From contig JACPLU010000006.1 of NCBI GenBank assembly GCA_016186395.1, positions 7,948 to 71,947 on the forward strand: a DNA stretch of 64,000 bases, given 5' to 3'. The position numbers were made by a program, and so were the translations under genes. Shown here piece after piece: positions 3,759 through 34,975 of the stretch (its first letter is position 1; each line of letters starts with the position of its first letter). The notes below the pieces were generated by a model, which worked only from the letters and a program-made list of their open reading frames with translations, did not search any database and had not been told where the DNA came from. Source of the stretch: Parcubacteria group bacterium (lineage in GTDB: Bacteria; Patescibacteriota; Minisyncoccia; 2-02-FULL-40-12).

Positions 3759-5555
3759 TTAATTAGTCACCAATTCTTTCTTCAACAACTCCTCTGCAAC
3801 TTGTGGATTGGCTTTGCCTTTGGTTTCTTTCATTACTTGACCGACAAGAAACTTCAAGGACTCCTGCTTACCTTTTTTATAATCTTCAACTGCTCTTTGA
3901 TTATTGGCAATAACATTTTTAACCGCGATTGTAAGCTCCCCCGAATCTGAAACCTGACCCAGATCTTTTTCTTTCATAATTTGTTCGGGATGCAATCCGG
4001 TTTCAGTCATTTCTTTTAATATAACCTTTGTGGCCGAAGAAGAAAGTTTTTTGTGGAAAAACATAACCATTAACTCGGCAAAGGCTTCCGGTTCAACTTT
4101 TATACCTGACAAATCTTCCAATTCGCTGGCATCTTTCATATTGAACAACACCGGAAATTCAGTAATTATAAAATTGGCCGCAAGCGCATGAAGCCTGCCC
4201 AGCAAATGTTTTTCATCAGAGAATTCTTTGACACTTCCACTTTTCAAATGTTCAACTTTAGCTTCTGAATCAAGTTCTGTGGCAACTTTTTCGTAATAAT
4301 CGCCCAAATGTTTCGCTTTGGTAAAAATTTCAATATCCCGCTCAGGCAGATTATACTGCTTTTTAAATCTATCACGCCTTTGCTGAGGTAGTTCTGGCAG
4401 ACTGACTAATAAACCGTCCACATCAATCTTAGTTGGCGGCACCCCCCCCTTTCTTTGAGAATCTTTTTCAATATTTGAGAATTCATTGGAAATAACCGCT
4501 ACGCTTTCATCACTAGCTTCTTTGAGAAGTTCACGAGAGAAAGAGGGGGGTCCTCGCCTTTGTAGCTTTTCGCTTATGCTCAAAAACAAAGGCGGGAGGT
4601 CCGGCTCCGGGAAATATCTATAATCGTGAGCTTCTTCTTTTGATCTTTGACTAACCGTTACACCTCTTACTTCGTCCCAACCTCTGGTTTCTTGAATAAC
4701 CCGTTCGCCACTATCTAAAAGCTCGCTTTGACGTTTAATTTCATATTCCACCGCTTGCATTGCTACTTTTATAGAGTTCAAATTTTTAATCTCCACTTTT
4801 GTACCTAATTTTTGATTTTTGATTTTTGATTTTTGATTTGAAGAAGTTAATATTTCGCTAAGCGAAATATTAACTTCGACACGCATTTGACCCTTTTCCA
4901 TATTTGCATCAGAAACGTTCAGATAACGTAAAATTAACTGAAATTCCTCGGCAAATTTTTTAACCTCGTTACCATTCTCTAAATCCGGTCTTGTTACTAA
5001 TTCCATTAACGGAACGCCGGCACGATTATAATCGACCAGCGAAGCTGGTCGCCCCGAGCCTGTCGAGAGGCTTTCATGCAAAAGCCTGCCCGCATCTTCT
5101 TCTAAATGAATGCGCTCAATTCTGATGCGCTTAACGTCTAAAGGCGAACGACTAAAGCCAGAGCTATCAATAGCTTTAGTCTTTAGACTTTCGTTGTTAG
5201 CCTTAGTCTTTAGACCTTGGTCATTAGACAGTATCTCTAAATAGCCGTCACGACATAACGGTTTTTGATACTGACTTATTTGATAGCCCTTTGGTAAATC
5301 AGGGTAAAAGTAGTTCTTTCTTTCAAAAAAAGATTCGTCTGCAATCTGGCAATGCAATGCCAAGCCAGCTTGAATCACTTTTTTCACAGCCTCCTGGTTT
5401 ATGACCGGCAATGTCCCTGGATGACCCATACAAATGGGACAAACATTAATATTTGGATGCTTTTCATCCGAATCATTTAAAGAATCGCAAAACATTTTAG
5501 TCTTGGTTTTAAGTTCAGCATGAATCTCCAGGCCGATTGTTGGTTTATAATTCAA
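3759..5555 (-). CDS. gatB: Asp/Glu-tRNA amidotransferase subunit B, expanded to 598 aa by four in-frame insertions
   Basis: N-terminus MNYKPTIGLEIHAEL...CPICMGHPGTLPVIN, plus RIERIHLEEDAGR and DYRYFPEPDLPP motifs. Confidence 0.9.
   Translation of the reverse strand: MNYKPTIGLEIHAELKTKTKMFCDSLNDSDEKHPNINVCPICMGHPGTLPVINQEAVKKVIQAGLALHCQIADESFFERKNYFYPDLPKGYQISQYQKPLCRDGYLEILSNDQGLKTKANNESLKTKAIDSSGFSRSPLDVKRIRIERIHLEEDAGRLLHESLSTGSGRPASLVDYNRAGVPLMELVTRPDLENGNEVKKFAEEFQLILRYLNVSDANMEKGQMRVEVNISLSEILTSSNQKSKIKNQKLGTKVEIKNLNSIKVAMQAVEYEIKRQSELLDSGERVIQETRGWDEVRGVTVSQRSKEEAHDYRYFPEPDLPPLFLSISEKLQRRGPPSFSRELLKEASDESVAVISNEFSNIEKDSQRKGGVPPTKIDVDGLLVSLPELPQQRRDRFKKQYNLPERDIEIFTKAKHLGDYYEKVATELDSEAKVEHLKSGSVKEFSDEKHLLGRLHALAANFIITEFPVLFNMKDASELEDLSGIKVEPEAFAELMVMFFHKKLSSSATKVILKEMTETGLHPEQIMKEKDLGQVSDSGELTIAVKNVIANNQRAVEDYKKGKQESLKFLVGQVMKETKGKANPQVAEELLKKELVTN
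5170..5232. repeat. cluster of short palindromic repeat units (TAGTCTTTAGAC) lying in-frame inside gatB
   Basis: tagtctttagac at 5176-5187, cttagtctttagacc at 5201-5215, cattagac at 5221-5228. On the minus strand these encode LKTKANNESLKTKA. Confidence 0.7.
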
Positions 5556-5582
5556 GGCTCAATGCTTAACGACAAAAGACCA

Positions 5583-5636
5583 AAGTTTAGATATTATTTT
5601 CTAGCCTTAGTCCATAGACTTTAAGCTGTAGTCAAC
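5583..5636. repeat. palindromic repeat-unit cluster, intergenic (gatB/thyX-like)
   Basis: ctagccttagtccatagactttaagctgtagtc, variants of the TAGTCTTTAGACTA unit. Confidence 0.6.
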
Positions 5637-5660
5637 TATTAATTTATCATGATTTTAAAT

Positions 5661-5687
5661 AACAAAAAAGCCCGGTGAACCGAGCTA
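5661..5687 (-). terminator. intrinsic terminator of the thyX-like gene
   Basis: On the minus strand: gctcggttcaccgggc hairpin followed by tttttt. Confidence 0.5.
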
Positions 5688-7337
5688 ACTAACGATTCTG
5701 TTCTCTTTTCTTCTTTGCGCCGCCTCTGACTCTGCACGACTCCAGAAATAGTCGTTATAATCTACAAATTCCATCAAAGGAGCAATTAATAAATCCTGCT
5801 CGCATAACAATCGATGTGCTTTTTGAATTAGTTTACGATACGAAGGATGTCCTTGAGGAATTGTCCGTAGTTCCATCAAATGAAACGCTTCTCTATGATT
5901 CATCCCCATATACCAACGAATGTTAAATAGAAAAAGAACTGCATATTGAGCAACTTTCTTTCCGACGCTAACCAACAACTTATCGTATAAATGATAAGAC
6001 CTTTCAACACAAGTTCGAAATTGTTTCCCCAATCCGGCTTCAATAACTTCTTCTGGTGTAACATATCCAAGGTAAGGATTTAAAAGTTGTCGTTGCTGAG
6101 TAAGCATTCTCTGTCGCTCAAGATCTCTATAAATCCCAAAATCACCTACAAAATCAAAGGTTATCGGATAACCAAATTCTAAACCACGGCCAGGTTTATT
6201 CCGTCTATTGCCCCTAACATCTTTATGCTGACAATATGCTTCCATAATCGCCTTTTTCTGATTAAAGGTGAGTAACTGACTGAAATCATAAAGTTCCCCC
6301 AGAGAAAGACAAGAAAAAGGATACAAAATATGCGCAATCGCCATAGATTCAAAATTCCAGTTACCTCCATAAAAAAGTTCTACTCGTTCTCTAGATACTG
6401 ATTCAATATGACCTAAATATCTATGGGCAATTTCTTCCATCTTTTCATTTACCGTTCGCAAATAAAAGTTAACATTCCCTCTTTTAACATAGTTTTCAAT
6501 AACCACCGATAATGCTCCTTTTGCTCTATCACCTAAATCTTGAAATTCAACCAAATCATGACTCTTTAATTTTGTAAGCATATTCTGATATCCTCTTCCA
6601 TTTCCGGATATACCAACATTTGTTAGAGTTGCTGCTGGCAAAAGTCCTCGAAGAGTATCGCAAGTTTTTGTTTTTATATCAGTTTTATACGTAACCGACC
6701 AAGCTCTTCTTTCTTTATCGTTATCCAACTCTTGAAGTTTATATGCCTTACTATCTCCCGCTCTTACAGCATACTCAGCCTCGTTCTCTGGTTTTAACCG
6801 CTTGAAATATTCTGACATGGGCTGAATTAGTTGAATATAAGTTTCAAGAACATAATCCAGTGTTGTCTCATATTCAGACAACAAACCGGCCTCAACAACT
6901 TCGACTGGTCTAAGATATCTCAACCTACCTTGACGATCTCTTTGGTCATAAACAACATAACGACTTGATTGCTCAATAGGCGAAAGACCGATACGGCAAT
7001 CTTCTATTTCCTTAGTTGCTAAATTAGAAACATTCTCAAGTGCCAAATGGGCATTCTCCAACTCACCAACCGAATCATCACCATAAGCGATTAAAACTCT
7101 TTCGACTAACTCGTTTAATTTGTCTAATTTTAATTTCCCTTTTTCATCTAAAAACTCCTTTAATAGACGAACTCTGGCTCCGCCTGCGGCTCTTGAGTAC
7201 CTGGCAAATACCGCCCCACCAACCCCATATAGGCTTGGCAAAAAAACAAAAATATCAGCACTAGGGTCACTAACATATTCTGCTAATATTTCTACTTCTT
7301 CTTTAGAAAAAATTGGGTCATACTCTGTACCTTGCAT
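5685..7337 (-). CDS. ThyX-family (Thy1 fold) protein, atypically long at 550 aa; possibly a tandem-duplicated fold with a diverged first active-site motif
   Basis: GELENAHLALENVSNLATKEIEDCRIGLSPIEQSSRY aligns to the ThyX [38 protein letters not shown] region. NGRGYQNML and AQYAVLFLFNIRWYMGMNHREAFHLMELRTIPQGHP align to the ThyX NARSLMNFLNLR / SHAQWEIQQYA region. The RHR triad is replaced by DCR. Confidence 0.5.
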   Translation of the reverse strand: MQGTEYDPIFSKEEVEILAEYVSDPSADIFVFLPSLYGVGGAVFARYSRAAGGARVRLLKEFLDEKGKLKLDKLNELVERVLIAYGDDSVGELENAHLALENVSNLATKEIEDCRIGLSPIEQSSRYVVYDQRDRQGRLRYLRPVEVVEAGLLSEYETTLDYVLETYIQLIQPMSEYFKRLKPENEAEYAVRAGDSKAYKLQELDNDKERRAWSVTYKTDIKTKTCDTLRGLLPAATLTNVGISGNGRGYQNMLTKLKSHDLVEFQDLGDRAKGALSVVIENYVKRGNVNFYLRTVNEKMEEIAHRYLGHIESVSRERVELFYGGNWNFESMAIAHILYPFSCLSLGELYDFSQLLTFNQKKAIMEAYCQHKDVRGNRRNKPGRGLEFGYPITFDFVGDFGIYRDLERQRMLTQQRQLLNPYLGYVTPEEVIEAGLGKQFRTCVERSYHLYDKLLVSVGKKVAQYAVLFLFNIRWYMGMNHREAFHLMELRTIPQGHPSYRKLIQKAHRLLCEQDLLIAPLMEFVDYNDYFWSRAESEAAQRRKENRIVS

Positions 7338-7359
7338 AACTTTTCTCCTTGTTTTTAAA

Positions 7360-7386
7360 ATACAAAAAAATCGGGTTTCCCCGATT
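7360..7386 (-). terminator. intrinsic terminator downstream of tmk
   Basis: On the minus strand: aatcggg-gaaa-cccgatt hairpin followed by a run of 7 T. Confidence 0.5.
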
Positions 7387-7395
7387 GTAGCAGAT

Positions 7396-8043
7396 CTATT
7401 TTTGTTTTAACAGCTCTAGTATTTTGTCACGAGCTTTTTGAAAAACATCTTCTGGGCTTAAAGTTGCATCAATCATAAACCAGCGTCTTGGTTCTTGTTG
7501 CAATTGGGCTAAATAGCCCTCCCGAACCACTTGGTGAAAGACTAAACTTTCTTGATCAAATTTATCCAACTCAACTTCCGACCTTCTTAAAATAGTTAAA
7601 CGTGGATCAATATCCAACAAAATTGTAAGACCGGGATATACTCTTTTACGAGCTATAGCCTCTATTGGAGTCATTGCTTCTAACGACAATCCTCTACCAT
7701 AATGCTGATAAGCAAAAGTAGAAGCAGTAAAACGATCACACAAAATTAAATATCCATCTTTTAATTTAGGCGAAATCACATCTACAATATGTTGGCATCT
7801 CCCGGCACAAAGAAGAAAAAATTCAGTCCAAGGATCTATATTTTCTGCGTCTCTAGATTTCAAAACTTGTCTAATTCTTTCCCCGAAATCCGTTCCTCCC
7901 GGTTCTCGCGTAGAAATTACTTTTATTCCAGAACTTAAAAAATATTCGTATAGCGAAGAAACTAGGGTTGTTTTTCCGCTTTTATCACCACCCTCAAAAG
8001 TAATAAATATTCCTGGATTTATCTCTGACATATACTTACTCAC
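7396..8043 (-). CDS. tmk: thymidylate kinase
   Basis: P-loop FITFEGGDKSGKTT, and REPGGT in the LID region. Confidence 0.85.
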   Translation of the reverse strand: MSKYMSEINPGIFITFEGGDKSGKTTLVSSLYEYFLSSGIKVISTREPGGTDFGERIRQVLKSRDAENIDPWTEFFLLCAGRCQHIVDVISPKLKDGYLILCDRFTASTFAYQHYGRGLSLEAMTPIEAIARKRVYPGLTILLDIDPRLTILRRSEVELDKFDQESLVFHQVVREGYLAQLQQEPRRWFMIDATLSPEDVFQKARDKILELLKQK

Positions 8044-8737
8044 TATCTAACTTTTCTTTTTTCCTACCAACTATCTCATAATCACTGTAAAGTCGTGGTA
8101 GCATAGAATAAGGCACCCAACTATTTTTCAAGGTTTCCAAATCTGTACCAGTTTGATACTTACCTTTTACTGAATAATCATCGTCTTCAAGAGGCCTTAC
8201 CTCATAAAATTTAATTTGACCAACACGCATTCCAGTCCTCAGAGGGATGTGATGGCGACAACTATTATTTGTAATCTCCATTGTCCAACGATTTACATAA
8301 CCAACATCACCCATTCCTGCACATTTACAAACTTCTATAAATGATCTACCCAGAGTTGAACGCGCTTTCATTTCAGAAGTGCAACAATTTCTTCCACCTA
8401 TAAATTCTTGTGTATGGGCCAATATTGTCTCACCTGGAGCAAGACATATTATTAAGTCTGATTCGATAAAACCATCTAAAGCAGTAATATTTAAATCCTG
8501 AATAAATTGGAAATAAGGAACTGCTCGTTGGGGTTCCTTTCCCCACACTCTTTCAATACTGGCCCTAGAGAAAGGATTGAAAATTGGTAAACCACCTTTT
8601 GAGTCTTGTTCCCTAAAATAATAATTACCCAAAGTTATATCATAACTGTTAGTACCTAGATTTCTTTCTTGAAAAGGATCAATGAGAATATTACCTAAAT
8701 TCATGTGTTTTAAAATATCCGGCCTTGATAAAAGCAT
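8036..8737 (-). CDS. dcd: dCTP deaminase / dUTPase-family protein
   Basis: ILKHMNLGNILIDPF...TNSYDITLGNYYF, LAPGETILAHTQE, GRSTLGRSFIEV and PLRTGMRVGQIKFYEV all align to E. coli Dcd. The gene overlaps tmk by 8 nt. Confidence 0.75.
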   Translation of the reverse strand: MLLSRPDILKHMNLGNILIDPFQERNLGTNSYDITLGNYYFREQDSKGGLPIFNPFSRASIERVWGKEPQRAVPYFQFIQDLNITALDGFIESDLIICLAPGETILAHTQEFIGGRNCCTSEMKARSTLGRSFIEVCKCAGMGDVGYVNRWTMEITNNSCRHHIPLRTGMRVGQIKFYEVRPLEDDDYSVKGKYQTGTDLETLKNSWVPYSMLPRLYSDYEIVGRKKEKLDSE

Positions 8738-8867
8738 ACTTTTCCTCCTTGTTAAGAAACTAAAAACAACCTAATGGTTGTTTTTAGTATAAAAGAAAAA
8801 GTTTTTATTGCAACTGTAACTATTTTACCTCCAACCTCAAACTCCTAGCTGTCCCTGCAATTTGGAC

Positions 8868-9000
8868 TTGACAGTAGTGCTATCAATATGATATACTTAC
8901 ACTATAGTCAGGACTTTAGCATGCCGGCGACCCAAGTGGCCGCGCTGGAAGCGATCCCTGGCTTAGCCTAGAGTCACGCGAGTGAATCTAGGCGTTTTTT
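8868..9000 (+). ncRNA. candidate small RNA, convergent on rplK; promoter at 8868-8897, transcript roughly 8904-9000
   Basis: TTGACA-18-TATACT promoter, then a GC-rich terminator hairpin cctagagtcacgcgagtgaatctagg and cgttttttatttt. No plus-strand ORF in the interval. Confidence 0.3.
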
Positions 9001-9418
9001 ATTTTATCTCCAATCCGAGACTTTTAGCAGTCCCTTCTACAATCTTCATTGCTCCCTCAATATCATTGGCATTTAAATCCTCCATTTTCATTTCTGCGAT
9101 TTTACGAACATCGTCCTTGCTAACTGAACCAACTTTATTTTTATTTGGCTGTCCAGATCCTTTTTCAATCTTAGCCGCTTGTTTCAATAAAAAGGCGGCT
9201 GGCGGAGTTTTGGTAATAAAAGTAAAACTGCGATCCTCAAAAACAGTAATTTCAACTGGAATCACCTGGCCTTTTCTGTCTTGAGTCGCATCATTAAAAC
9301 GCTTAACAAAATCTTGAATATTTAAACCGTGCGGCCCAAGTGCCGTACCAACTGGCGGAGCAGGCGTTGCTCCCCCACCCACAATCTGAAGTTTTATAAT
9401 TGTTTTGATCTTAGGCAT
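8999..9418 (-). CDS. rplK: 50S ribosomal protein L11
   Basis: [42 protein letters not shown]. The real start is the internal ATG at 9416-9418; the longer ORF upstream is an artefact. Confidence 0.9.
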
Positions 9419-9423
9419 ATTTG

Positions 9424-9455
9424 TGACTAATGACCAAAGTCTAAAGACTAAAGTC
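9424..9455. repeat. palindromic repeat-unit cluster (rplK/IVP-like junction)
   Basis: tgactaatgaccaaagtctaaagactaaagtc. Confidence 0.6.
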
Positions 9456-9465
9456 AAAATTAAAT

Positions 9466-9819
9466 TTATTTTAAACTATTAATTAAACCCTTAAGTTTTG
9501 AAACCACCAAACCACTCATCTGATATAAACTGTCAAAATCTTTACGATTTATAAAATCCAAATCTAAAGCTATATACAAACCAGAAATTACTTCTTCAAT
9601 TGATCCTAAAGACATTCGCAAAAATCTTTTGAACTCGGCATCTGATTTTTTATCGCTTCCTTCTGCTATATTCAATACTATAGAAACAGACACCCTACGA
9701 ATTTGACTTACTAATCCAAAAATTTCTTCTTTTGGAAAACGACTTGTAACTTTATAGATAGCAACAGTAAACTCTCTTGCCAACTTCCATACTTCAAGCT
9801 TTTCAAATCTATAGTACAT
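9466..9819 (-). CDS. four-helix-bundle protein of the 23S rRNA intervening-sequence / Avd family (TIGR02436-like)
   Basis: [51 protein letters not shown] is a textbook match to this family. The gene is flanked on both sides by the TAGTCTTTAGAC repeat clusters. Confidence 0.75.
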
Positions 9820-9834
9820 TTAATATATTACTGC

Positions 9835-9859
9835 CCTAGTCCTTAGACATTAGTCTTTA
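9835..9859. repeat. palindromic repeat-unit cluster (IVP-like/nusG junction)
   Basis: cctagtccttagacattagtcttta. Confidence 0.6.
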
Positions 9860-9870
9860 AGCCCAAAAAG

Positions 9871-10416: not shown

Positions 10417-10427
10417 GATGATCTAAG

Positions 10428-10610
10428 CTAAAAAACTAGTTTTCTTAAAAGGAATCCGAAAAAATAATCCAATCCTCCAAGAAAAACCCCCAATACAATT
10501 GTAAATCCAATAACAACAACGGTGTATTTTAAAAGCTCTTGCTTTGTCGGCCAGTTTACTTTTTTGAGTTCTATTTGTACGTCCTTGAGAAAGGCGAGAA
10601 TTTGGTTCAT
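10428..10610 (-). CDS. secE: preprotein translocase subunit SecE
   Basis: 60 aa ending in one transmembrane helix; FLKDVQIELKKVNWPTKQEL; sits next to nusG as in most bacteria. Confidence 0.8.
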   Translation of the reverse strand: MNQILAFLKDVQIELKKVNWPTKQELLKYTVVVIGFTIVLGVFLGGLDYFFGFLLRKLVF

Positions 10611-10616
10611 AAATTC

Positions 10617-10712
10617 GTCTAAAGACTAGCGTCTGTCTAACGTCTAATGTCTAAGGTCTTAGTCGTTAGACTTTAGTCATTAGTCTATCGTTGGTCATTA
10701 GACTTTAAGCTT
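10617..10712. repeat. large palindromic repeat-unit cluster (about 6 units) downstream of secE
   Basis: aaagactagcgtctgtctaacgtctaatgtctaaggtcttagtcgttagactttagtcattagtctatcgttggtcattagactttaagc. Confidence 0.7.
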
Positions 10713-10919
10713 AATTTAACACTATTTCTTGGATTTTAAAATGGCCCGCAGGCCATTTAAGAATATAGCAAATATTAGAAATTTATACAAGACTTAACTT
10801 TTTACTCGCTCCTGACAAAAACCCGTTCAGGTTCTGGTAAAAAGGTAGTATCAACAATTCTTTCAACTCCATCTTCAAGCTCGGGAGTGGAAAGATTTTG
10901 AGAATAGTACCCTTTTAAA

Positions 10920-14640: not shown

Positions 14641-14667
14641 AAGGTCTAAAGACAAACATCTAAAGCT
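14641..14667. repeat. palindromic repeat units (gyrB/RT junction)
   Basis: aaggtctaaagacaaacatctaaagct. Confidence 0.45.
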
Positions 14668-14715: not shown

Positions 14716-15696
14716 TCATTTTGAGTCATTATTACCCTTTAATTTTACCAGATTTTGTATATAAAAACAATGCTTAAAGCATAGTCTTGAGTGGATAATT
14801 TTAAGTTTTAATTTAATCGTTTCTATACTTTTATTTATTTCCACTCTTTTTAACATCCTTCTCTTAGTGGCTGTTCTCAACACTCTATGGTCTGAAAAGT
14901 GTACCCAACCAAGAAAATCAATCCCGGAATTTAAGGTTTTAATTGATACTTTATGAGGATGTAGCTGTAACCCAAGCCTATTTTGTAAAAAACTACTAAC
15001 TTGTGGCAATAAATCTAAAAGCCAATTCTTATTTTGTGAAAGAAAAACAAAATCATCAGCATAACGAATATAGTATTTAACTTTTAATTTGTGTTTTACA
15101 AACTGATCAAATTCATTCATATAGATATTTACTAATAATTGAGAAGTTAGATTACCAAGAGGCAGACCAATACCAAGATGAATTAAATAAAAACTAGAAA
15201 TAATTTCATTTAATAACTCTATAATATTTGGGTTTGAAATATATTTTTTTAAAATAGCAAGTAGAACTTGATGATCAATATTGGCAAAGAACTTTTTAAT
15301 ATCGCATTTTAAAACCCAGACTGTTTTTGTATTATTTTTTGATTCTTTATAAGAAAAATCTCTAAATCTATTAATTGCTTTATGAGTTCCTTTATTCAAT
15401 CTGGATGAATATGAGTCAGCAATAAATGTTTTGTCGAAAAATGGATAAAGTTGACGATAAATTGCGTGATGAAGTAATCTGTCTCTTACTTTAGCTTTAT
15501 GAATGCTTCTTGGTTTTGGATCAGAGATATTAAATGCTTGATACTCTCCGTGCTTGTAGATATGATTAGTTAAATCGTGATGTAAAGATAAAATATTATC
15601 CATTAGATTTAACTGAAATTCTTGAACATCTTTTCTTTTTCTTTTGCCTTTGATAAATTCTTTCCAGGCTTCAAGTAAATTTTCCAAACTAACCAT
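14716..15696 (-). CDS. diversity-generating retroelement (DGR) reverse transcriptase
   Basis: RT motifs are all present: LENLLEAWKEFIKGKRKRKDVQEFQLNL at the N-terminus, LKCDIKKFFANIDH, LPLGNLTSQLLVNIYMNEFD (the DGR-type [IL]GxxxSQ where group II introns have QGxxxSP), and YIRYADDFVFL. At 326 aa it has no maturase or endonuclease domain. Confidence 0.85.
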   Translation of the reverse strand: MVSLENLLEAWKEFIKGKRKRKDVQEFQLNLMDNILSLHHDLTNHIYKHGEYQAFNISDPKPRSIHKAKVRDRLLHHAIYRQLYPFFDKTFIADSYSSRLNKGTHKAINRFRDFSYKESKNNTKTVWVLKCDIKKFFANIDHQVLLAILKKYISNPNIIELLNEIISSFYLIHLGIGLPLGNLTSQLLVNIYMNEFDQFVKHKLKVKYYIRYADDFVFLSQNKNWLLDLLPQVSSFLQNRLGLQLHPHKVSIKTLNSGIDFLGWVHFSDHRVLRTATKRRMLKRVEINKSIETIKLKLKIIHSRLCFKHCFYIQNLVKLKGNNDSK

Positions 15697-15764
15697 TTCT
15701 TCGAAACTATGACAAAATTCAATTCTTTTACGCCCCCCCCCCCAGCAGCAGTAGCAGCACCTCT

Positions 15765-16112
15765 TTGCCTATTCTTCAGAAACTGATTGTGGTTTACAAA
15801 ATTTGGCATGGTTATTTACCTAGATTCTCAAAAGATCATCGCTATACACTAGGTTTTAAAATTGACTCGCTCTTTGTTGAGGTAATCGAAACCCTCCATC
15901 AAGCACAGTATATTTTTTGGAGACAAAAACAATCGTATTTGACTAAAGCTTCATCAAGACTAGATACGCTAAAATTCTTTCTCCAAATACTTTGGGAAAT
16001 AAACGGTATTGAAAATAAAAAGTATATTCATCTTTCTAAGCATATAGAAGAAATCGGAAAAATGCTTGGCGGATGGATAAAAGAAACAAATTTAAAAAAC
16101 CAAACCCTCTAA
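15765..16112 (+). CDS. avd: DGR accessory variability determinant (Avd)-like four-helix-bundle protein, on the opposite strand from the RT, TR and target
   Basis: 115 aa. YLPRFSKDHRYTLGFKIDSLFVEVIETL and the C-terminal IGKMLGGWIKETNLKN resemble Bordetella-phage bAvd (YPIAQSIPRKHGVAREMFLK... / VGRILGSWIARVNRKG). The template repeat starts 24 nt past its stop. Confidence 0.65.
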   Translation: MPILQKLIVVYKIWHGYLPRFSKDHRYTLGFKIDSLFVEVIETLHQAQYIFWRQKQSYLTKASSRLDTLKFFLQILWEINGIENKKYIHLSKHIEEIGKMLGGWIKETNLKNQTL

Positions 16113-16135
16113 TAAAGAGGGTGGAAATAAGCCAG

Positions 16136-16262
16136 TTGCGAGGAACCACGAGACGATCATTGGAGTTCCAATCATTGTCGAGCCTATTGAAGTTCAAGAT
16201 CCATTCGTCATCGTTCCAGTTCAGATACGGAACGTACCAATTGCCGTTCGAGTCCTGCCATT
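16136..16262 (-). repeat. DGR template repeat (TR), sense strand = minus
   Basis: 127 bp. It matches 16553-16679 at 104 of 127 positions; all 23 mismatches are at plus-strand T (sense-strand A) in this copy. Confidence 0.85.
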
Positions 16263-16472
16263 ACGTACAAAATGCCATCTGTACCACTGTCCTTCGAATT
16301 ATCTTAGGACTGTATCTTATTGGGGATCTTTAAATCCTCTAGCATTCTGAACCAAGTAGCTTTATTTTTTTAGAAATCTGAAAAGATTTCGGAATTGGAT
16401 CGCTTAAAACTTGTTTAGTCGTAAGCTAATTGATCTACTTTCCAAATCATAGTATATCAAAAATATAAAAAA

Positions 16473-16506
16473 ATGCCCGACAGGTTTAACAAACCCTGTC
16501 GGGCAT
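16473..16506 (-). promoter_or_regulatory. perfect 12-bp stem hairpin about 45 nt downstream of the VR/target stop codon (DGR retrohoming hairpin candidate)
   Basis: atgcccgacagg-tttaacaaac-cctgtcgggcat. Confidence 0.55.
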
Positions 16507-16548
16507 AGAGCCAAGGGATCCAAGAACCAAGAGTTCAAGGATCCTTAA

Positions 16549-17097
16549 CTACTTGCGAGGAACCACGAGACGATCACGGGAGTGCCAAGCACGGCCGAGC
16601 CTATAGAAGCGCAAGACCCATCCGCCAACGCGCCAGTGCAGATACGGAACGTACCAACGGCCGTCCGAGCCCTGCCAAATGGTGCCCGGAAAAACCAGGT
16701 AGTACTTCCGAAGTTCTTTTGAAATCTTGCTTTGGTTTTCCAAAAGCCACTCGGCATCTTCCTGGCCGTAGTTAGCGTTAAACTCTCTCCTGGCTCGAAG
16801 TACCATCTCTTCGCCGTTAACATAGGTCTCACCCTCTTTCAGGAACGAGATCCCATCGACGGCAGAGAAAATACGATGCGGAACACTCTCTAGAAGCGTC
16901 CAGCCTTCTTTGCGCATGTCACGCTTGAAGGTGGCCACGATAGGGCCGAAGCGACCCTCAATGGCAAACTGGAGATGTACCTTGAGCTGAAAGGGGTCAA
17001 ATGGGTAACCGCTCGGCTGCCTCATCTGACGCTTTATCTCCCAGAGTTGACCGTCCAACTCTTGGTAGAGATCGCCTGCGACCATGATATTGGCCAT
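16549..17097 (-). CDS. DGR target protein (182 aa) carrying the variable repeat in its last ~43 codons; no signal peptide
   Basis: The C-terminus TIWQGSDGRWYVPYLHWRVGGWVLRFYRLGRAWHSRDRLVVPRK is encoded by the VR. The VR abuts the TAG stop. Confidence 0.8.
   Translation of the reverse strand: MANIMVAGDLYQELDGQLWEIKRQMRQPSGYPFDPFQLKVHLQFAIEGRFGPIVATFKRDMRKEGWTLLESVPHRIFSAVDGISFLKEGETYVNGEEMVLRARREFNANYGQEDAEWLLENQSKISKELRKYYLVFPGTIWQGSDGRWYVPYLHWRVGGWVLRFYRLGRAWHSRDRLVVPRK
16553..16679 (-). repeat. DGR variable repeat (VR)
   Basis: Counterpart of the TR. The first 24 nt (ttgcgaggaaccacgagacgatca), next to the stop codon, are invariant and GC-rich, consistent with an IMH-like element. Confidence 0.85.
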
Positions 17098-22910: not shown

Positions 22911-23171
22911 GCGTTCCTATTGTACGCGGAATATAAGATTTTTCAATCCTTCAGCTCCATTGACCTTAAATTATAATGAATGGGCCAATTCTAAAAACAA
23001 CCCATTCGGGTTGTTTTTAGAATTGAAGCTGTCTACAGATAACGCCGGCGGCAAAATTCGTTTGTTTTTATCAACAAACACCGAGCTAATTGGTTCCGCA
23101 ATCTTACGGAACATCAATTCGCCCTTCTCATCCCAACGCAAGCAAAGCAATTTGCTTGCTCCCCTTCCTAA

Positions 23172-23612: not shown

Positions 23613-23660
23613 AAATATATAAAATCACTGAAAAGTAAAAATAGAGTAAATAAATTTATC

Positions 23661-23768
<108 letters not shown>

Positions 23769-23776
23769 CATCCTTC

Positions 23777-27940: not shown

Positions 27941-27984
27941 CTAAGGTTTAATAAATTTAAATATCTATCCCAATTAATATATGG

Positions 27985-28013: not shown

Positions 28014-28019
28014 TAAACC

Positions 28020-29261: not shown

Positions 29262-29271
29262 TGTTCTTGTC

Positions 29272-31113
29272 TTAAGTATTGGTCTTTTTGCTTCTGGCCC
29301 TATCATTTTTAGTAAGAGACTTTTTACGCAAACGAATAGACTTTGGAGTAACTTCCAAAAGCTCATCATCTTCTATAAAATCTAAGGCTTCTTCAAGCGT
29401 AAAAATAGTTGGTGGTGCAAGGGTAATCGCGTCGTCTGAAGATTTTGAACGCATATTAGTTAAAACCTTTCCTTTGCAAACATTTATTTCAATATCTTCT
29501 TTCCTACTATTAAGACCTACTATCATGCCCTCATAAACCTGTGTTGTTGGTTCAACAAAAGTAATGCCCCTGCCTTGAGCGACCTCCAATCCAAACGCAA
29601 CCGCTTTTCCTGTTTCAGAAGCGAGCAAAACACCATTTCTCATTCTTGGTAATTGGGCGCCAAGTTTTCTGTATCCTAATAGAACACTATTTATAACCGC
29701 CGTACCCTTTGTTTCTCTGACGAGAATACTTCTTAAACCAAGGAAATTCTGTGTACTGACGTGATACACCAGTCTTGAATAACCGTTATTATGATTCACT
29801 AAATCAACCAAGTCGGATTTTCTTTTTCCAAATTCGGTTGTTATAACCCCGACAAATTCTTCAGGTATATCAATTGTAATTTCTTCAAACGGTTCTTGCT
29901 TTTCTCCATTCACTTCTTTAACGATCACCTCGGGTCTGGAAATTTCCAATTCAAAACCCTCACGACGCAAAGTTTCAATTAGAATAGACAAATGCAACTC
30001 ACCTCTACCGGAAACTAAAAAATCTGTGCCTCCGACATCGACCATACGCATACCAACATTAGTCTCTATTTCCCTATGCAAACGTTCGCCTATTTGGCGA
30101 GATGTAACATAACTTCCCTCTTGCCCTTTAAACGGCGACGTATTGGGTCCAATTCTGATTCTCAAAGTTGGCTCCTCAATCTTAATTGTCGGCAATGCTT
30201 CAGGATTATTGGGATCAGCAACGGTCATGCCGATATGAGAATCCGACAAACCAGTAACAGCCACAATTTCTCCAGCACTTGCACCCTGAACTTCAAGTTT
30301 TTTCAGTCCATCAAATAAAAATATTTTATCAACCTGGGCATTGGTCTTAAAACCGTCATGGCCTATTACAGTAACGGATTGCCCCGGTTTAATACTGCCT
30401 CTTAAAATTCTACCGATTGTATACTTGCCCTGATAACTGTCTTGATCAAGATTAGTAACCAGCATCTGTAAAGACAAATCAACATCAACTTCCGGGGCCG
30501 GTATAAAATTTATTATTTCTTCAAAAAGAGGTTTTAAATCGGCAGCACCTAATACTTCTTCGTTGCTTGGAATATGATTCCAAGCCTTTCCCTCACGGCC
30601 TATGGCATAAATAACTGGAAAATCTAAATGGTGATCTTCTTCTGATAAGTGCAAAAAAAGATTTCCGACTTCATCTACGGTACGTTTTATATCAGCTCCG
30701 GATTTATCAATTTTATTTATGACAACAATAATCCTAAGATTTAATTCTATTGCCTTTTTAAGAACAAATTTTGTCTGAGGCATAGGCCCTTCTTGAGCGT
30801 CAACTAAAAGCAAAGCTCCGTCTGCCATATTTAAGGTGCGCTCTACCTCCCCTCCGAAATCAGCATGGCCAGGCGTATCAATTATATTAATTTTTATCCC
30901 GTTATACTTTACAGATGTATTTTTAGCCAAAATCGTTATTCCCCTCTCACGTTCCAAGTCATTTGAGTCCATAATTAAATCTTTGGTTAATTCCTCTGCT
31001 TTCGCATGAAAAGTATTTGACTGTTTCAACAAAAAATCAACCAGAGTTGTTTTTCCATGGTCTACGTGGGCAATGATAGCAATATTTCTTAAATTTGATA
31101 CTTTTTCTTTCAT
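29272..31113 (-). CDS. typA: translational GTPase TypA/BipA
   Basis: RNIAIIAHVDHGKTTLVDFLLKQSNTF, DTPGHADFGGEVER, NKIDK. Convergent with metK across a 10-bp gap. Confidence 0.9.
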   Translation of the reverse strand: MKEKVSNLRNIAIIAHVDHGKTTLVDFLLKQSNTFHAKAEELTKDLIMDSNDLERERGITILAKNTSVKYNGIKINIIDTPGHADFGGEVERTLNMADGALLLVDAQEGPMPQTKFVLKKAIELNLRIIVVINKIDKSGADIKRTVDEVGNLFLHLSEEDHHLDFPVIYAIGREGKAWNHIPSNEEVLGAADLKPLFEEIINFIPAPEVDVDLSLQMLVTNLDQDSYQGKYTIGRILRGSIKPGQSVTVIGHDGFKTNAQVDKIFLFDGLKKLEVQGASAGEIVAVTGLSDSHIGMTVADPNNPEALPTIKIEEPTLRIRIGPNTSPFKGQEGSYVTSRQIGERLHREIETNVGMRMVDVGGTDFLVSGRGELHLSILIETLRREGFELEISRPEVIVKEVNGEKQEPFEEITIDIPEEFVGVITTEFGKRKSDLVDLVNHNNGYSRLVYHVSTQNFLGLRSILVRETKGTAVINSVLLGYRKLGAQLPRMRNGVLLASETGKAVAFGLEVAQGRGITFVEPTTQVYEGMIVGLNSRKEDIEINVCKGKVLTNMRSKSSDDAITLAPPTIFTLEEALDFIEDDELLEVTPKSIRLRKKSLTKNDRARSKKTNT

Positions 31114-31269
31114 TTGTAACTTAAGACCCCGTCGTTAAGGGGTCAGTTGCTTTTATTATAACACACTTAGAAATACTAAACAACGTCAAAATCAGGGGTA
31201 TTCCACGCACATATTATGCCTTAAAACCTAATTTCTTCCACAATATGTATGTGAATAGAGCTTAATAAA

Positions 31270-31298
31270 TTTGACAACAATACCACATAGTGCTACTA
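31270..31298 (+). promoter_or_regulatory. sigma70-type promoter
   Basis: TTGACA - 17 nt - TACTAT. Confidence 0.5.
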
Positions 31299-31335
31299 TT
31301 TCTTTAAATCTTTTAAGCGTTACGGAGGAATGTGT

Positions 31336-31591
31336 GATGAAAAAAGAAAAAATCACCCACACATACGATGAAATTAATGCCTTAAAAAACCCCTATTTTG
31401 TGGACTGGCTGAAGAACTATGATAAAGAATTGAAACGCCTTTCAAATTTTGAACTCTTGTCTGAACATGCGAACTCTGCTATTCGTGATGGGGGAACATC
31501 CGAAGTACTTGGCTTTCGAAGCCTACAAAAAAAACATGCTGAAAATGAAATACTTAGACGAATGAATCAGAAGAGGGTCAAAAAGCAATAA
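31336..31591 (+). CDS. small hypothetical protein (85 aa)
   Basis: The ATG at 31336 is 8 nt after the SD ggagga. The longer ORF from 31271 overlaps its own promoter and is not used here. Confidence 0.45.
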
Positions 31592-31615
31592 ATAATCGAT
31601 ATTTGAACAAAGATT

Positions 31616-31642
31616 GGCAAAAGCGCAAATGCGCTTTTTTTC
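31616..31642 (+). terminator. intrinsic terminator
   Basis: aaaagcgc-aaat-gcgctttt followed by ttttc. Confidence 0.6.
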
Positions 31643-31735
31643 TTTCCAAACTTAAGATACATACAGAACTTTAAAAATGATTATTTAAGAAAATGGACAT
31701 TTGAATAAATATAAACTTAATCCTATAATATTCTT

Positions 31736-32191
31736 ATGGCTAAACCCTTAAGTCTTGAAGAGGTTAGGAAACATCATAAGCCGATAAGAAACGTTAATCT
31801 TGAACACAAAGAGAAACTTTCTAGATTAGAAAGATTTGCCGTTTGGATTACAGAACATATAGGTTCAATGGGTTTTTTCCTTCTAATTTTAGCCTGGACC
31901 ATTTTTTGGCTGTTATGGAACACGGTTGGACCAGAAGAGTCACAATTTGATCCATTTCCTGCTTTTGTTTTTTGGCTTTTTATTTCCAACATGATTCAGC
32001 TTCTTTTAATGCCCCTGATAATGATCGGACAAAACCTACAAGGCCGGCATTCAGAAGCAAGAGCGTCCGAGGATTTTGAAGTGAACATCAAAGCAGAAAA
32101 AGAAATAGAAGTCATAGTACAGCATCTTGAGAATCAGGGCGAACTAATACAGAAGATTGCCAGTGACCTTGAGTCACTAAAACAAAAGTAA
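31736..32191 (+). CDS. DUF1003-family membrane protein
   Basis: LSRLERFAVWITEHIGSMGFFLLILAWTIFWLLWN...DPFPAFVFWLFISNMIQLLLMPLIMIGQNLQGRH fits the DUF1003 pattern. Confidence 0.55.
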   Translation: MAKPLSLEEVRKHHKPIRNVNLEHKEKLSRLERFAVWITEHIGSMGFFLLILAWTIFWLLWNTVGPEESQFDPFPAFVFWLFISNMIQLLLMPLIMIGQNLQGRHSEARASEDFEVNIKAEKEIEVIVQHLENQGELIQKIASDLESLKQK

Positions 32192-32236
32192 TTTACCGTC
32201 CTAAATAAAAAACCCCACGGCTAAGTCAGGAGGTTT

Positions 32237-32806
32237 TTATTGTAAAACATGCAACTCCTTGAGAACCTTTTCAAAATTGGTAATTGCTTCTATTGAGTCC
32301 GACTGTGTAATTTTAAATTCCGGATTATGAGCAATCTGATTTCTAATCTTATGGGCAAACCACAAACCATCTATTGATTGGATCTGGTCTCGCGTAATAA
32401 GCATAAGCTTTTCTCCCATTGTTTCACCCGGATAACCGGCTTTTTCAAGAATATTGTTCACCAACGCATCAGCTTCAATTACAGCAAGTTTCCACTGGGC
32501 TTCTTTGTCTGAATCTATGTGGCGCTTAATTTCTTCCCATCTAGCCATTAATGGCCCGCCTTCGTCTGGTTTTACTGGTGTCGCTTTTAGTTGCCTTAAG
32601 CGCTCGGCAACAAACTTTCTTAATTTAATTACTAAAATTATAAAGGCGACTCCAAAAACAATTGAAATAAAAAGAGATAGCTTTTTTATGAAAATTAATA
32701 AATCTGAACTAAAACCGCCGTCCTGAAACGTCCCAACTGCTTGGGCAACATAAAACTTACCTGAATCTAAAAGTGAAATTAAATCTGGAGAAAAATTCGT
32801 AGGCAT
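32237..32806 (-). CDS. hypothetical membrane-anchored protein
   Basis: One transmembrane helix (LFISIVFGVAFIILVIKL). Its start overlaps the gatA stop region. Confidence 0.45.
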   Translation of the reverse strand: MPTNFSPDLISLLDSGKFYVAQAVGTFQDGGFSSDLLIFIKKLSLFISIVFGVAFIILVIKLRKFVAERLRQLKATPVKPDEGGPLMARWEEIKRHIDSDKEAQWKLAVIEADALVNNILEKAGYPGETMGEKLMLITRDQIQSIDGLWFAHKIRNQIAHNPEFKITQSDSIEAITNFEKVLKELHVLQ

Positions 32807-34230
32807 TATTGTGGGTTCAATGATTGTTCCAATGAATATGCTGTTTTTAAAATTGTAGCCTCATCAAAAGGTTTTCCTATTATCTGAAAACCAACAGGAA
32901 GATCTTTATTTTCAATTCTAACACTTCCGCAAGGAATAGAAATTGCCGGCAAACCAGCCAAATTAACTGGAACAGTATAAATATCAGATAAATACATTGA
33001 AACTGGATCTTCTGCTTTCTCTCCTATTTTAAAAGCGGTTGTTGGAGCAGTTGGCCCAACAATTACGTCCACTTTTAAAAACGCATCGTCAAAATCTTTT
33101 TTAATTAGTGCACGGACTTTTTGAGCTTTTAAATAATAGGCATCGTAATAGCCGGAAGATAGAGCAAAGGCACCAAGCATAATACGACGTTTAGTTTCTT
33201 GCCCAAATCCTTCACCACGGCTTTTAGCATAGACTTCAAACAAATCTTTTGCGTGTGTTGACGAATGGCCATAACGAATTCCATCAAGACGGGCCAAATT
33301 TGCAGAAACTTCCGATGGTAAAATTATATAATAAGCCGCTAAAGCATACTCAGAATGAGGCAAAGAAATGTCTATTATTTCTGCGCCCAAAGACTTTAAC
33401 TTAGAAATCGCTGATTCCACTTTTATTTTTACTTCCGGATCTAAACCTTTGCCAAAGTATTCTTTGGGTACACCAACTTTTAATCCTTTAATAATTCCGT
33501 CTAAACCTTTTGTAAAATCCGGCACATTTAAATCTATCGTTGTGGAATCAAACACATCTTTACCAACTATAACGCTTAAAACTGTGGCTGAATCATAAAC
33601 CTTTTTTGTAAATGAACCAATCTGATCCAAAGACGAAGCAAGAGCGATCAGACCATGCCGCGATACCCGACCATAAGTTGGTTTTAATCCGACCACGCCA
33701 CAAAAAGAAGCCGGCTGACGAATTGATCCACCAGTATCAGAACCAAGAGCAAAAACACATAAATCTGCGGCTACGGCCGCGGCTGAACCACCAGAGCTTC
33801 CACCCGGGACACGCGACACATCGTGTGGATTCTTGCTTGGTCCAAAAGCAGAATTCTCTGTTGATGAACCCATGGCAAATTCATCCATATTTGTTTTACC
33901 TAAAAAAGTCACACCTGACATTTTTAATTTTGAAATAACCGTAGCATCGTAAGCTGAAACGTAATTTTCCAGAATCTTTGAACCGGCAGTACAAATAGTC
34001 CCGTCAATTAAAATATTGTCCTTAACGGCACATGGAACACCAGACAACGGCATAGCCGCTGAATTTTCAATTTTCAATTTACAATTTTCAAATATAGATA
34101 AATAAGCATTTAATTCTTTATTCTCTTTTTCTATTTTTTTATAGTAATGCTTAAAAATTTCTTCAGCTGAAAAATCGCCTTTTTTAAGACCTTCCTTGAC
34201 TGATTCAATTGTAAAACTTATATTTAGCAT
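32806..34230 (-). CDS. gatA: Glu/Asp-tRNA amidotransferase subunit A
   Basis: Amidase signature [45 protein letters not shown]. Confidence 0.9.
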
Positions 34231-34246
34231 AATTGCTGTTTAAAAA

Positions 34247-34576
34247 TTGGAGGCACGAAATATGGTATCGCATCTCAGAAAACCCACCATACCACTTACT
34301 AAAAAACAAATTAAAATGGGACCGCCTCGTTTCATAAATAAAACTGAATTTAAAAATTTACTGAGAAAAGAACTAAAGAAAAAATATGATGGACCTGTTG
34401 GTTTTGATATAGTATCCATTGCTGATATTTATCGTAAGTTAAAAAAGAAGCATCGTCACATCAATTTAACCAGTGAAGAAATTTCAAAATTTATAAATAT
34501 TCTTATTGAAAACTGGGTTATCGACTTAAAACTTGATATAGTAACAAGGGAAGTTTATTTTTGTTTTAACGAATAA
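34247..34576 (+). CDS. hypothetical small protein on the opposite strand, exactly filling the gatC-gatA gap
   Basis: 109-aa basic AT-rich ORF with no minus-strand alternative. It could instead be a non-coding spacer. Confidence 0.3.
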   Translation: MEARNMVSHLRKPTIPLTKKQIKMGPPRFINKTEFKNLLRKELKKKYDGPVGFDIVSIADIYRKLKKKHRHINLTSEEISKFINILIENWVIDLKLDIVTREVYFCFNE

Positions 34577-34578
34577 CT

Positions 34579-34893
34579 CTATTTCTTATGCTCCAAAACA
34601 GATTTAACTTTAACAAATCTACCTTCGTGTTCCGGAGTCTGACCAATTAATTTATTTGTTAAATCCTCGTCCATTACAAAACTATTTCTTGGTTCATCGC
34701 TTCGATAAGAATTTGATAATCCAGTTGTTTGATACAATGGCTCTATGTTTTCAGTATCTACCTTATTTAACTGATCTATAAAATCTAAAATCTTCGCCAA
34801 TTCCTTGGCGAATTTTTCTTTTTCAACTTCAGTTAATTCAATCCTGGCGAGTCTTGCAATATGCTCTACATCAATAACAGATTTAGAACTCAA
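34579..34893 (-). CDS. gatC: Glu/Asp-tRNA amidotransferase subunit C
   Basis: IDVEHIARLARIELTEVEKEKFAKELAKILDFIDQL. Confidence 0.85.
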   Translation of the reverse strand: MSSKSVIDVEHIARLARIELTEVEKEKFAKELAKILDFIDQLNKVDTENIEPLYQTTGLSNSYRSDEPRNSFVMDEDLTNKLIGQTPEHEGRFVKVKSVLEHKK

Positions 34894-34975
34894 AGCTAAA
34901 TGACTAATGACTAAAGACTAGGGCTTTTTTGATATTTTTAACTTTAGTCTTTGGACTTTAGACGCTAGACTACAA
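34893..34975. repeat. palindromic repeat-unit cluster downstream of gatC
   Basis: atgactaatgactaaagactagggc...actttagtctttggactttagacgctagac. Confidence 0.65.

Follow-up and report, generated by a model that had tools for sequence, protein, structure and literature searches.

Records of short tandem repeats with a unit of seven nucleotides go back to 1990 for cyanobacteria and to 2015 for Xanthomonas. To our knowledge, these repeats have no accepted origin or role. Such repeats are described here from a stretch of 64,000 nucleotides of a Parcubacteria group bacterium (contig JACPLU010000006.1, positions 7,948 to 71,947), which as a whole is called the window. Their main unit is the heptamer TTAGWCN, and two mutually inverted arrays of it enclose a small gene between nusG and rplK. 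The gene encodes a four-helix-bundle protein of the S23p/IVS family, where IVS stands for intervening sequence. The structure of this family has been solved, but we know of no function for it.

The window yields a testable link between heptanucleotide repeats and the S23p/IVS family. If the two do form a coupled system, this would provide a function for an orphan protein family and for a class of repeats that has lacked an explanation since 1990. In addition, the streamlined genomes of Patescibacteria have many heptamer-array hairpins, in intercistronic spacers and in in-frame loops of essential proteins (GatB). These matter for annotation, for assembly and for the understanding of operon processing.

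Among the repeats described earlier are three tandemly repeated heptanucleotides in Calothrix PCC 7601, and the units GGGAATC and GGGGAYT in Xanthomonas and Nostoc (Rehm et al. 2015, PMC4692102). The arrays in the window are like these in having a 7-nt unit and in being short, dispersed, mostly intergenic and near start or stop codons. In both cases some arrays form convergent inverted pairs that are able to form stem-loops, and length and sequence vary among related genomes. Unlike the repeats of PMC4692102, TTAGWCN is AT-rich and can form no G-quadruplex, and some copies lie in a coding frame. Simply as repeats, the arrays appear to be heptanucleotide simple sequence repeats (SSRs) of the cyanobacterial and Xanthomonas kind. 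A literature search found no description of such heptanucleotide repeats in Patescibacteria.

The second close comparison is with the intervening sequences of ribosomal RNA (rRNA). Those of the Coxiella and Leptospira type are 428-444 nt long, contain an S23p open reading frame (ORF), are bordered by a 28-bp stem and are excised by RNase III (PMC4990558). The cassette in the window is similar: it measures 452 nt, has one PF05635 ORF and a stem of about 28-35 bp, and an RNase III gene is present. In a relative, L018, a gene of this family with heptamer-periodic arms even lies inside 16S rRNA. The differences are that the window cassette has two protein genes (nusG and rplK) as its neighbours instead of lying in an rRNA helix, that its arms are tandem heptamer arrays, and that the stem also has dispersed gene-less copies elsewhere in the genome. 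Judged by its sequence, the cassette is an IVS outside rRNA, with the architecture of an rRNA intervening sequence placed in a messenger RNA (mRNA) operon.

The nusG-rplK cassette and its repeat unit

The portion of the genome covered is the window plus about 10 kb of flanking contig. Pfam was run on the 61 ORFs of the window, and the roughly 10 kb of flanking contigs were judged from precomputed Pfam calls. G+C content in the window is 33-41%, and the minus strand carries almost every gene. Its Pfam and NCBIfam annotation and its GatB and NusG relatives assign the window to an uncultured member of Patescibacteria (Parcubacteria/Paceibacteria). Measured by GatB, Candidatus Yanofskybacteria come closest among the GTDB species representatives, at 58% identity. 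The window sequence is also present in Logan assemblies of the runs SRR121134xx and in an NCBI metagenome-assembled genome.

The cassette has three parts:

9820 to 9870, minus strand: 5' arm, a GWCTAAN-type array (units at 9836-9855) directly after the nusG stop codon
9466 to 9819, minus strand: four-helix-bundle gene, 117 aa, PF05635/TIGR02436 (23S rRNA intervening-sequence protein, S23p)
9419 to 9465, minus strand: 3' arm, five TTAGWCN units (9425-9458) that end 5 nt before the rplK ATG

The protein matches Pfam PF05635 with an E-value of 5.7e-34 and TIGR02436 with one of 9e-32. It is homologous to the pentamer of PDB entry 2GSC, which is XCC0516 of Xanthomonas campestris (E 1.2e-19). The gene occupies the loop between the inverted TTAGWCN arrays. 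The predicted pairing of the flanks reaches -35.9 kcal/mol, against -12.5 +/- 3.2 in shuffled sequences, and 0 of 500 shuffles did as well. In L091, the arms have another order of units and yet are complementary, at -29.9 kcal/mol.

A set of 73 loci selected by NusG, which includes the window, was available for comparison. Two of these, L091 and L092, are two contigs with one sequence. The gene is found between nusG and rplK in 3 of the 73 (the window and L091/L092), within cassettes of 452-454 nt. The spacer in the other 70 measures -4 to 328 nt. Three more contigs, L171, L173 and L180, have a nusG-rplK cassette arrangement like that of the window. The cassette at this site appears to be an insertion. 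The contig also has a gene for RNase III, some 5 kb upstream (L166 480-1187).

The original prediction for this DNA had described seven clusters of a palindrome, TAGTCT-NN-AGACTA, as a family of the REP/BIME type (repetitive extragenic palindromes and bacterial interspersed mosaic elements). All seven clusters are where it placed them, far above chance. Taken literally, the palindrome (TAGTCTNNAGACTA, a 14-mer) has 0 matches in the window. What is really there is TTAGTCTTTAGAC with its variants, for which 20 matches are found at up to two mismatches, all within 5136-34963, versus 2.4 +/- 1.6 in shuffles. The true unit is the heptamer TTAGWCN, tandemly repeated. A local palindrome, AGTCT-TT-AGACT, arises only where a T-variant unit precedes an A-variant unit.

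Arrays were called by chaining TTAGWC units at an exact spacing of 7 nt, with 100 dinucleotide shuffles as the control. This yields 12 arrays with 38 units, versus 1.2 arrays and 2.5 units in the shuffles. The matrix over these 38 units reads T33 T37 A32 G38 W(19 T, 19 A) C37 N. Tandem Repeats Finder (TRF) reports a period of 7 or 14 at every listed cluster. The refuting condition named beforehand was that the motif would prove to be a low-complexity artefact whose copies lack palindromic conservation. This is not the case, as the repeat family is real and structured.

Outside the cassette, TTAGWCN elements are found at these places in the window:

10611 to 10712, minus strand: hairpin without a gene, GWCTAAN and TTAGWCN arrays that end 6 nt before the secE ATG
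34893 to 34975, minus strand: gene-less hairpin of the gatC leader, 3 + 4 units, 22-nt loop
5583 to 5636, minus strand: degenerate copy of this hairpin, gatB leader, flanked by the thyX terminator and the TTG start of gatB
14641 to 14667, minus strand: single array of three TTAGWCN units, 5' of the gyrB ATG and 3' of the reverse-transcriptase gene of a diversity-generating retroelement (DGR)
5132 to 5232, minus strand: inverted-array element in the gatB frame, residues about 108-141

A further full array pair lies upstream of nusB, just beyond the window (L166 1795-1900).

The alternating orientation that had been predicted does exist between the arms of a pair, but the units of any one array all point the same way, head to tail. 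Convergent pairs are found at 10617-10661/10659-10703, 34902-34921/34944-34970 and 5132-5158/5173-5229, and arrays of one orientation at 9425-9458, 9836-9855 and 14644-14663. Six of the seven clusters are intergenic, but the one at 5170-5232 is inside the gatB reading frame and not past a gene end. Clusters outside that ORF occupy spacers between co-directional genes of the minus strand. On this sense strand the order is stop codon, GWCTAAN array, loop, TTAGWCN array, start codon. Arms have 2-7 units, and the loops range from about 0 to 22 nt, or 354 nt where the gene is present. From array to start codon there are 5-6 nt at rplK and secE, and at most about 25 nt at gatC and gyrB.

The stem predicted for paired arrays is imperfect and 20-45 bp long. 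Folding energies of such AT-rich repeats are modest, and inverted array pairs have fold z-scores from -2.7 to -3.9. For the pair upstream of secE (gene at 10428-10610) the fold is -24.6 kcal/mol with a z-score of -3.85.

Like REP, BIME and REPIN (REP doublets that form hairpins; PMC3116915), the TTAGWCN elements are short, dispersed, mostly extragenic and hairpin-forming, with frequent inverted doublets between cistrons. This much of the REP/BIME assignment stands, but the testable defining features of membership fail. A conserved palindromic unit of REP length (20-60 bp) was not found, and there is no dispersed 16-mer among the repeats of the window. The longest dispersed word is the 12-mer GTCTAAAGACTA, with 4 copies. 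As a 12-13-mer it recurs at four loci, whose distances reach about 5 kb. Instead of a palindromic unit there is an internal repeat of 7 nt, in a geometry where arm lengths vary and doublet spacing is not conserved. One copy is in frame within gatB, and units are wholly different between close relatives.

A REP/REPIN family could also be mobilised by a RAYT (REP-associated tyrosine transposase) that is encoded elsewhere in the genome. The dispersal and the REPIN-like folding of the doublets (PMC3116915) would fit this. No Y1 transposase of the IS200/RAYT type is among the Pfam calls for the 61 window ORFs and the approximately 10 kb of flanking contig. With the missing unit, the 7-nt period and the varying spacings taken together, this explanation is very improbable. 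Compared to miniature inverted-repeat transposable elements (MITEs), inverted arms are present and no transposase was found in the window or its flanks, and none of the relatives is close enough to supply an empty site for defining target-site duplications.

Arrays and four-helix-bundle genes in other genomes

A homologue search with look-ups of context found relatives of the cassette gene at 55-72% identity, at several sites. These sites are nusG-rplK (in Yanofskybacteria, Magasanikbacteria and one other), RNase J-LOG, SIMPL-enolase, PrgI-TraC (Wolfebacteria) and RNR-CobA. Heptamer arrays with a GACTA[A/C] / [T/G]TAGTC core flank the gene in 7 of 8 look-ups, and the eighth (Curtissbacteria) has an AAGCTTN unit instead. 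Overall, the TAGTC/GACTA core is found at four-helix-bundle genes in at least 8 genomes and at 5 insertion sites. The stop codon of the gene is frequently the TAG of the first 3' unit. In L018 (20879-21479), a four-helix-bundle gene lies in an insertion of about 400 nt in the 5' domain of 16S rRNA. Its arms are heptamer-periodic and complementary: CAACTTC TAATCTC TAATCTA / GCGATTG GTGATTG GAAGTTG.

Within Patescibacteria, the flanks of 11 four-helix-bundle genes were compared with those of 2143 other genes, using an automatic TRF criterion. Arrays are present on both flanks of 5 of the 11, versus 18 of the 2143. On at least one flank they are present for 9 of the 11, versus 223 of the 2143. 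The Fisher p is 4e-8, in a sample of gene contexts that is small and partly non-independent. The automatic criterion overlooks degenerate arrays that are visible by eye, as in L091 and L173.

A tblastn search of plasmids shows the family to be almost confined to Nostocales and other cyanobacteria, plus Riemerella. Heptamer arrays are present on both flanks in 10 of 14 plasmid gene contexts and on at least one flank in all 14, where the 14 include orthologues and represent about 7 independent contexts. For control genes, taken from 50 kb of Nostoc punctiforme pNPUN01, the numbers are 2 and 8 out of 41 (p = 2e-6). One of the two doubly flanked control genes directly adjoins a four-helix-bundle gene. 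Units at the plasmid flanks include AGGAGTC/GACTCCT, GTAGGGA/TCCCTAC, GTGTAGG/CTACACC and GGTTCAA/TTGAACC, and the pairs are mainly inverted.

For Xanthomonas, the supplementary table of Rehm et al. 2015 (PMC4692102) has a GGGAATC x4 repeat that overlaps the start codon of XCC0516. The paper nowhere mentions the four-helix-bundle protein family. A full-text literature search found no paper that joins the names of the PF05635 family with heptameric repeats. By these comparisons, four-helix-bundle gene and heptamer arrays are co-located across four phyla, in mRNA operons as well as in rRNA.

On the Pseudanabaena galeata plasmid pPg_01 (L189, 45977-46858), cas6 and cas4 have a four-helix-bundle gene between them. 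Long arrays in direct orientation flank this gene, with (AAAAGCT)x12 on its upstream and (AAAAGCC)x10 on its downstream side.

It is possible, if on the doubtful side, that PF05635 proteins and heptanucleotide arrays are functionally coupled and together make up a single widespread system. In that case the pentameric protein would bind the arrays that bracket its own gene, or help to generate and spread them. The gene-less arrays, meaning TTAGWCN here, the heptanucleotides of Nostocales and GGGAATC in Xanthomonas, would be cis-elements.

A rival explanation is that the arrays are RNA or DNA cis-sites of the pentameric four-helix-bundle protein, and that the dispersed hairpins are its regulon or propagated copies. 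The co-location across four phyla fits with this. It also fits that the heptamer families of the flanks are dispersed in the same genome (TTAGWCN; GGGAATC in Xanthomonas), and that on pNPUN01 two more spacers close to the gene have AGGAGTC. The number of units per array is 2-5, and five chains were deposited for the solved homologue 2GSC. In many lineages the gene's stop codon falls inside the first 3' unit. Avd, which is related to the four-helix-bundle protein, is a nucleic-acid-binding cofactor of DGR reverse transcriptases, and this can be counted in favour of protein sites as well. Against this stands a second family of arrays in the window, described below, which like most arrays of relatives has no such gene nearby. 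In addition, unit sequences vary so widely among genomes that the protein would need to co-evolve with its site, and the S23p of Coxiella is reported to be probably untranslated (PMC4990558). On balance, protein sites are an unlikely explanation.

Gene-less arrays and what they may be

The second heptamer family, here called family B, has the units NTGAAAC / GATTCAN-GTTTCAN, and occupies other spacers than TTAGWCN:

44373 to 44467, minus strand: family-B spacer, NTGAAAC/ATAAAAC with CGTGATT/CACGTTT, lag-7 identity 0.48
57570 to 57658, minus strand: family-B inverted arrays, lag-7 identity 0.67, z -2.7
58319 to 58421, minus strand: family-B hairpin in the PrgI-TraC-like spacer, lag-7 identity 0.74, -31.5 kcal/mol, z -3.45
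58758 to 58833, minus strand: family-B hairpin in the spacer 5' of the PrgI gene, lag-7 identity 0.67, -22.9 kcal/mol, z -3.82

The first of these separates two adjacent genes for secretion/pilus ATPases of the T2SSE family (44468-46213 and 43290-44372). The second is the spacer between the ORF at 57659-58318, which is TraC-like on contig L163, and a gene for a TraG/VirB4-like ATPase. Family B is found in a pilus-like operon and in a type-IV-secretion-like operon, and also at rnc-rpsP just upstream of the window. The PrgI-TraC spacer, which has a gene-less family-B hairpin in the window, has an array-flanked four-helix-bundle gene in Wolfebacteria.

A period of seven is not limited to these two families. 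It is the period of 13 of the 16 tandem repeats in the window with at least 3 copies, and about 10 of some 43 spacers contain heptamer arrays. In two sets of relatives (2.1 Mb), 7 is by far the commonest tandem-repeat period, with 107 and 80 arrays. Intergenic DNA makes up little of these genomes, and yet 103 of 205 arrays are outside long ORFs; 44 of these 103 have an inverted partner at most 130 nt away. Perfect heptamer arrays of other units are found inside gatB, gatA, ligA and an ORF of a pilin operon. The nusG-rplK spacers of many relatives have hairpins of inverted 7-9-nt arrays with unrelated units, including TCTAATN, AATTCTA, AAATTAG, AATTTCC and TACGAAT, and others are nearly spacerless.

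These numbers could mean that the arrays are neutral heptanucleotide microsatellites, made by slippage and local duplication only, with small genes inserted into repeat-rich spacers. Heptamers of many unrelated AT-rich units do dominate the tandem repeats of the clade, half of the 205 arrays are inside long ORFs, and presence or absence at orthologous sites looks haphazard. A passage in PMC4692102 also ascribes the excess of heptameric SSRs across bacteria to slippage. However, GTCTAAAGACTA is found at four loci and the TTAGWCN unit at eight, and independent slippage would not converge on one unit like that. The shared TAGTC/GACTA core, the enrichment beside four-helix-bundle genes in both comparisons above, and the complementarity kept between the differing cassette arms of the window and L091 point away from it too. 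Neutral microsatellites are considered improbable.

Two further systems are worth mentioning. GTCTAAA loosely resembles the core of the DNA uptake sequence of Neisseria, and the window has type IV pilus genes. Uptake sequences, in the form of terminator-like inverted pairs, would be expected to share one conserved word throughout the genome and with relatives. Instead there are two families in 64 kb and other units in each relative. The other system is that of TIGR (tandem interspaced guide RNA) arrays, which with their Tas proteins are known from Parcubacteria (PMC12045711). Such arrays have two alternating repeats of 8-12 nt with 9-nt spacers, beside Tas genes with a Nop domain (PMC12045711), but the TTAGWCN arrays have a period of 7 and no spacers, and the Pfam scans reported no Nop-domain family. 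The array geometry and the diversity of units exclude both systems, or leave them the most negligible likelihood of all readings discussed here.

A reader of the HutP or TRAP kind, for repeats of UAG-N4, was also considered, as TTAGWCN contains UAG plus 4 nt. It was set aside because family B and the units of relatives have no UAG.

Several more ordinary roles for the TTAGWCN elements were tried and rejected. They are not intrinsic terminators: the upstream genes own a separate GC-hairpin with a T-run (5686-5669; about 35000-35045), and no T-run follows the arrays. A scan for sigma-70 promoters found no excess at arrays. Masking of Shine-Dalgarno motifs by the arrays was considered as well. 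Such a motif precedes just 12 of 61 genes, which makes its absence at array-preceded genes uninformative.

The leaders of gatB (5556-5700) and gatC(A) (34894-35050) are about 80% identical across some 135 nt. What they have in common is a TGnTAAATT box, which has just two copies and lies ahead of the gatB and gatC arrays, followed by the heptamer hairpin and a TTG start codon. This similarity suggests a duplicated control region of the split gatCAB genes.

Upstream of secE (10740-10765; L084-L127), most of 80 relatives have a sigma-70-like promoter, then a GC hairpin with a U-run, ACGCCNNNGGGCGTTTTAAAAT. Compensatory changes are seen in its stem, and some lineages have variable hairpin or tandem-repeat inserts downstream. 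The arrangement resembles a conserved leader or an attenuator, or else a very small RNA. The TTAGWCN hairpin at 10611-10712, just before secE, is missing from the corresponding place in relatives.

The cassette, with its ORF left out, can also be aligned to the gene-less elements. The scores are 44 for nusB, 34 for the gatB leader, 32 for secE, 30 for gatC and 29 for the gatB insert, where the maxima of shuffles are 24-30 (24 for the gatB leader). The nusB and gatB-leader alignments span the point at which the ORF was removed. With moderate strength, two histories fit the alignments: a cassette may have lost its ORF, or a hairpin may have existed first and received the ORF in its loop.

The preferred reading is that all of these are IVS-like stem elements that come with and without the gene, and it is held with moderate confidence. 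The gene-less hairpins (secE, nusB, gatC, gatB, gyrB) and the gene-bearing cassette would be two forms of a single element family, transcribed together with the host operons. The double-stranded stem would be a substrate of the organism's RNase III, or a protective hairpin at an mRNA end. Such protection at mRNA ends is the role classically given to REP elements, and a REP-like effect of the TTAGWCN hairpins is at least plausible. The stem may uncouple or stabilise the adjoining cistrons, as REP elements do in E. coli. The arrays themselves may lengthen, shorten and become homogenised via replication slippage, together with template switching between the arms. This would account for a lasting architecture with lineage-specific units.

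A number of results weigh against this reading. The fold of the gatC-leader hairpin has a z-score of only -1.5, and arrays of single orientation (before rplK alone, after nusG and before gyrB) fold like shuffles. In many relatives the orthologous sites have no TTAGWCN hairpin, so that the hairpins are dispensable. Slippage was not seen to be ongoing, as array lengths do not vary in two further samples of this population. Contigs from five additional runs match the window at 99.9-100% identity and their arrays are free of indels, and array length polymorphism was rejected. The family-B hairpins and most of the about 200 heptamer arrays of relatives have no four-helix-bundle gene nearby, and the gene is thus unnecessary for arrays to exist. 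Array pairs on plasmids are direct in Pseudanabaena and Nostoc PCC 7120, which means that the stem is not universal; the plasmid contexts, as noted, are also in part orthologous. Lastly, the sequences aligned between gene-less elements and cassette are AT-rich and of low complexity, and this is what keeps that evidence moderate.

Elements inside genes and neighbouring features

The window gene gatB (3759-5555, minus strand) contains the cluster at 5170-5232, which encodes a part of the protein containing GLKTKANNESLKTKA. The inverted repeat there, I6, spans 5132-5158 / 5173-5199. This adds an insert of about 33 residues that is absent from Thermotoga GatB, by alignment with the PDB structure, and from most of 18 relatives. 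The loop after GYLEI, where it lies, has independent repeat- or hairpin-coded inserts in five lineages, including L007, L011, L013 and L067.

A second insert in GatB is also coded by heptamers:

4808 to 4839, minus strand: perfect CAAAAAT x4.6 array in gatB, second insert site, residues 237-250

Its unit is unlike TTAGWCN, yet it is the same heptamer phenomenon. In L023, a CAAATCC x9.7 array is found at the matching GatB loop. Both loops with heptamer inserts carry independent repeat-coded inserts elsewhere (L007, L011, L013, L023, L067). In total, the window GatB has four lineage-specific inserts, two of them coded by heptamer arrays, and measures 598 aa versus 480-558 aa in the 18 relatives.

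The Rickettsia palindromic elements of Ogata et al. 2000 are reportedly 100-150 bp long, with a conserved consensus, and in frame within essential genes. The gatB element resembles them: an in-frame hairpin repeat adds a surface segment and the gene is not destroyed. Unlike it, the Rickettsia elements are not heptamer arrays and are not known to have a link to a four-helix-bundle gene. One array element is tolerated in frame, in a surface loop of GatB.

A Logan contig, L167, equals the window up to 4641 and then continues into a gatB of about 70% identity that lacks the CAAAAAT array (L167 4435-4795 against window 4642-5002). L167 is then a chimera, assembled with sequence from a co-occurring relative, or else a recombinant. 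Three Logan contigs of the population end inside gatB, at most about 370 nt apart, one of them within the 4808-4839 array.

The ORF at 38952-39455, in a pilin-like operon, has a perfect CAAAAGT x4.9 array at its N-terminus (39416-39449) that overlaps the end of the upstream gene. One 7-nt unit more or less would shift the frame of this ORF, which makes the array a candidate phase-variation switch.

A distinct small hairpin family is formed by CTAAAAACAACC / GGTTGTTTTTAG, with perfect inverted pairs at two spacers and a single copy at a third (8760-8787, 22986-23025, 56281).

Next to the gyrB array lies a complete DGR (14716-17097). It has a reverse transcriptase at 14716-15696 on the minus strand and Avd at 15765-16112 on the plus strand (NF033474, 79 bits). 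The template repeat of 125 nt (16136-16260) is 83% identical to the variable repeat (16553-16677), which is at the 3' end of the ORF at 16549-17097. A link between this DGR and the arrays was considered and rejected: the flanks of the Avd gene pair at background level, and template and variable repeats are unrelated to the arrays.

At 550 aa, the ThyX-like ORF upstream of gatB (5685-7337) is roughly double the normal length, and it contains two Thy1 stretches. The gene for the alpha subunit of DNA polymerase III (window 16-1128; L166 2388-6899) contains an intein with a LAGLIDADG endonuclease domain.

Four tRNAs are all that Rfam reports for the window at gathering thresholds; there is no rRNA. 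In tRNA-Met (23659-23735), the 3' half is repeated in tandem as a perfect copy of 35 nt (23696-23769). An integrated element may have left this duplication as a scar, or it may be a quirk of the assembly.

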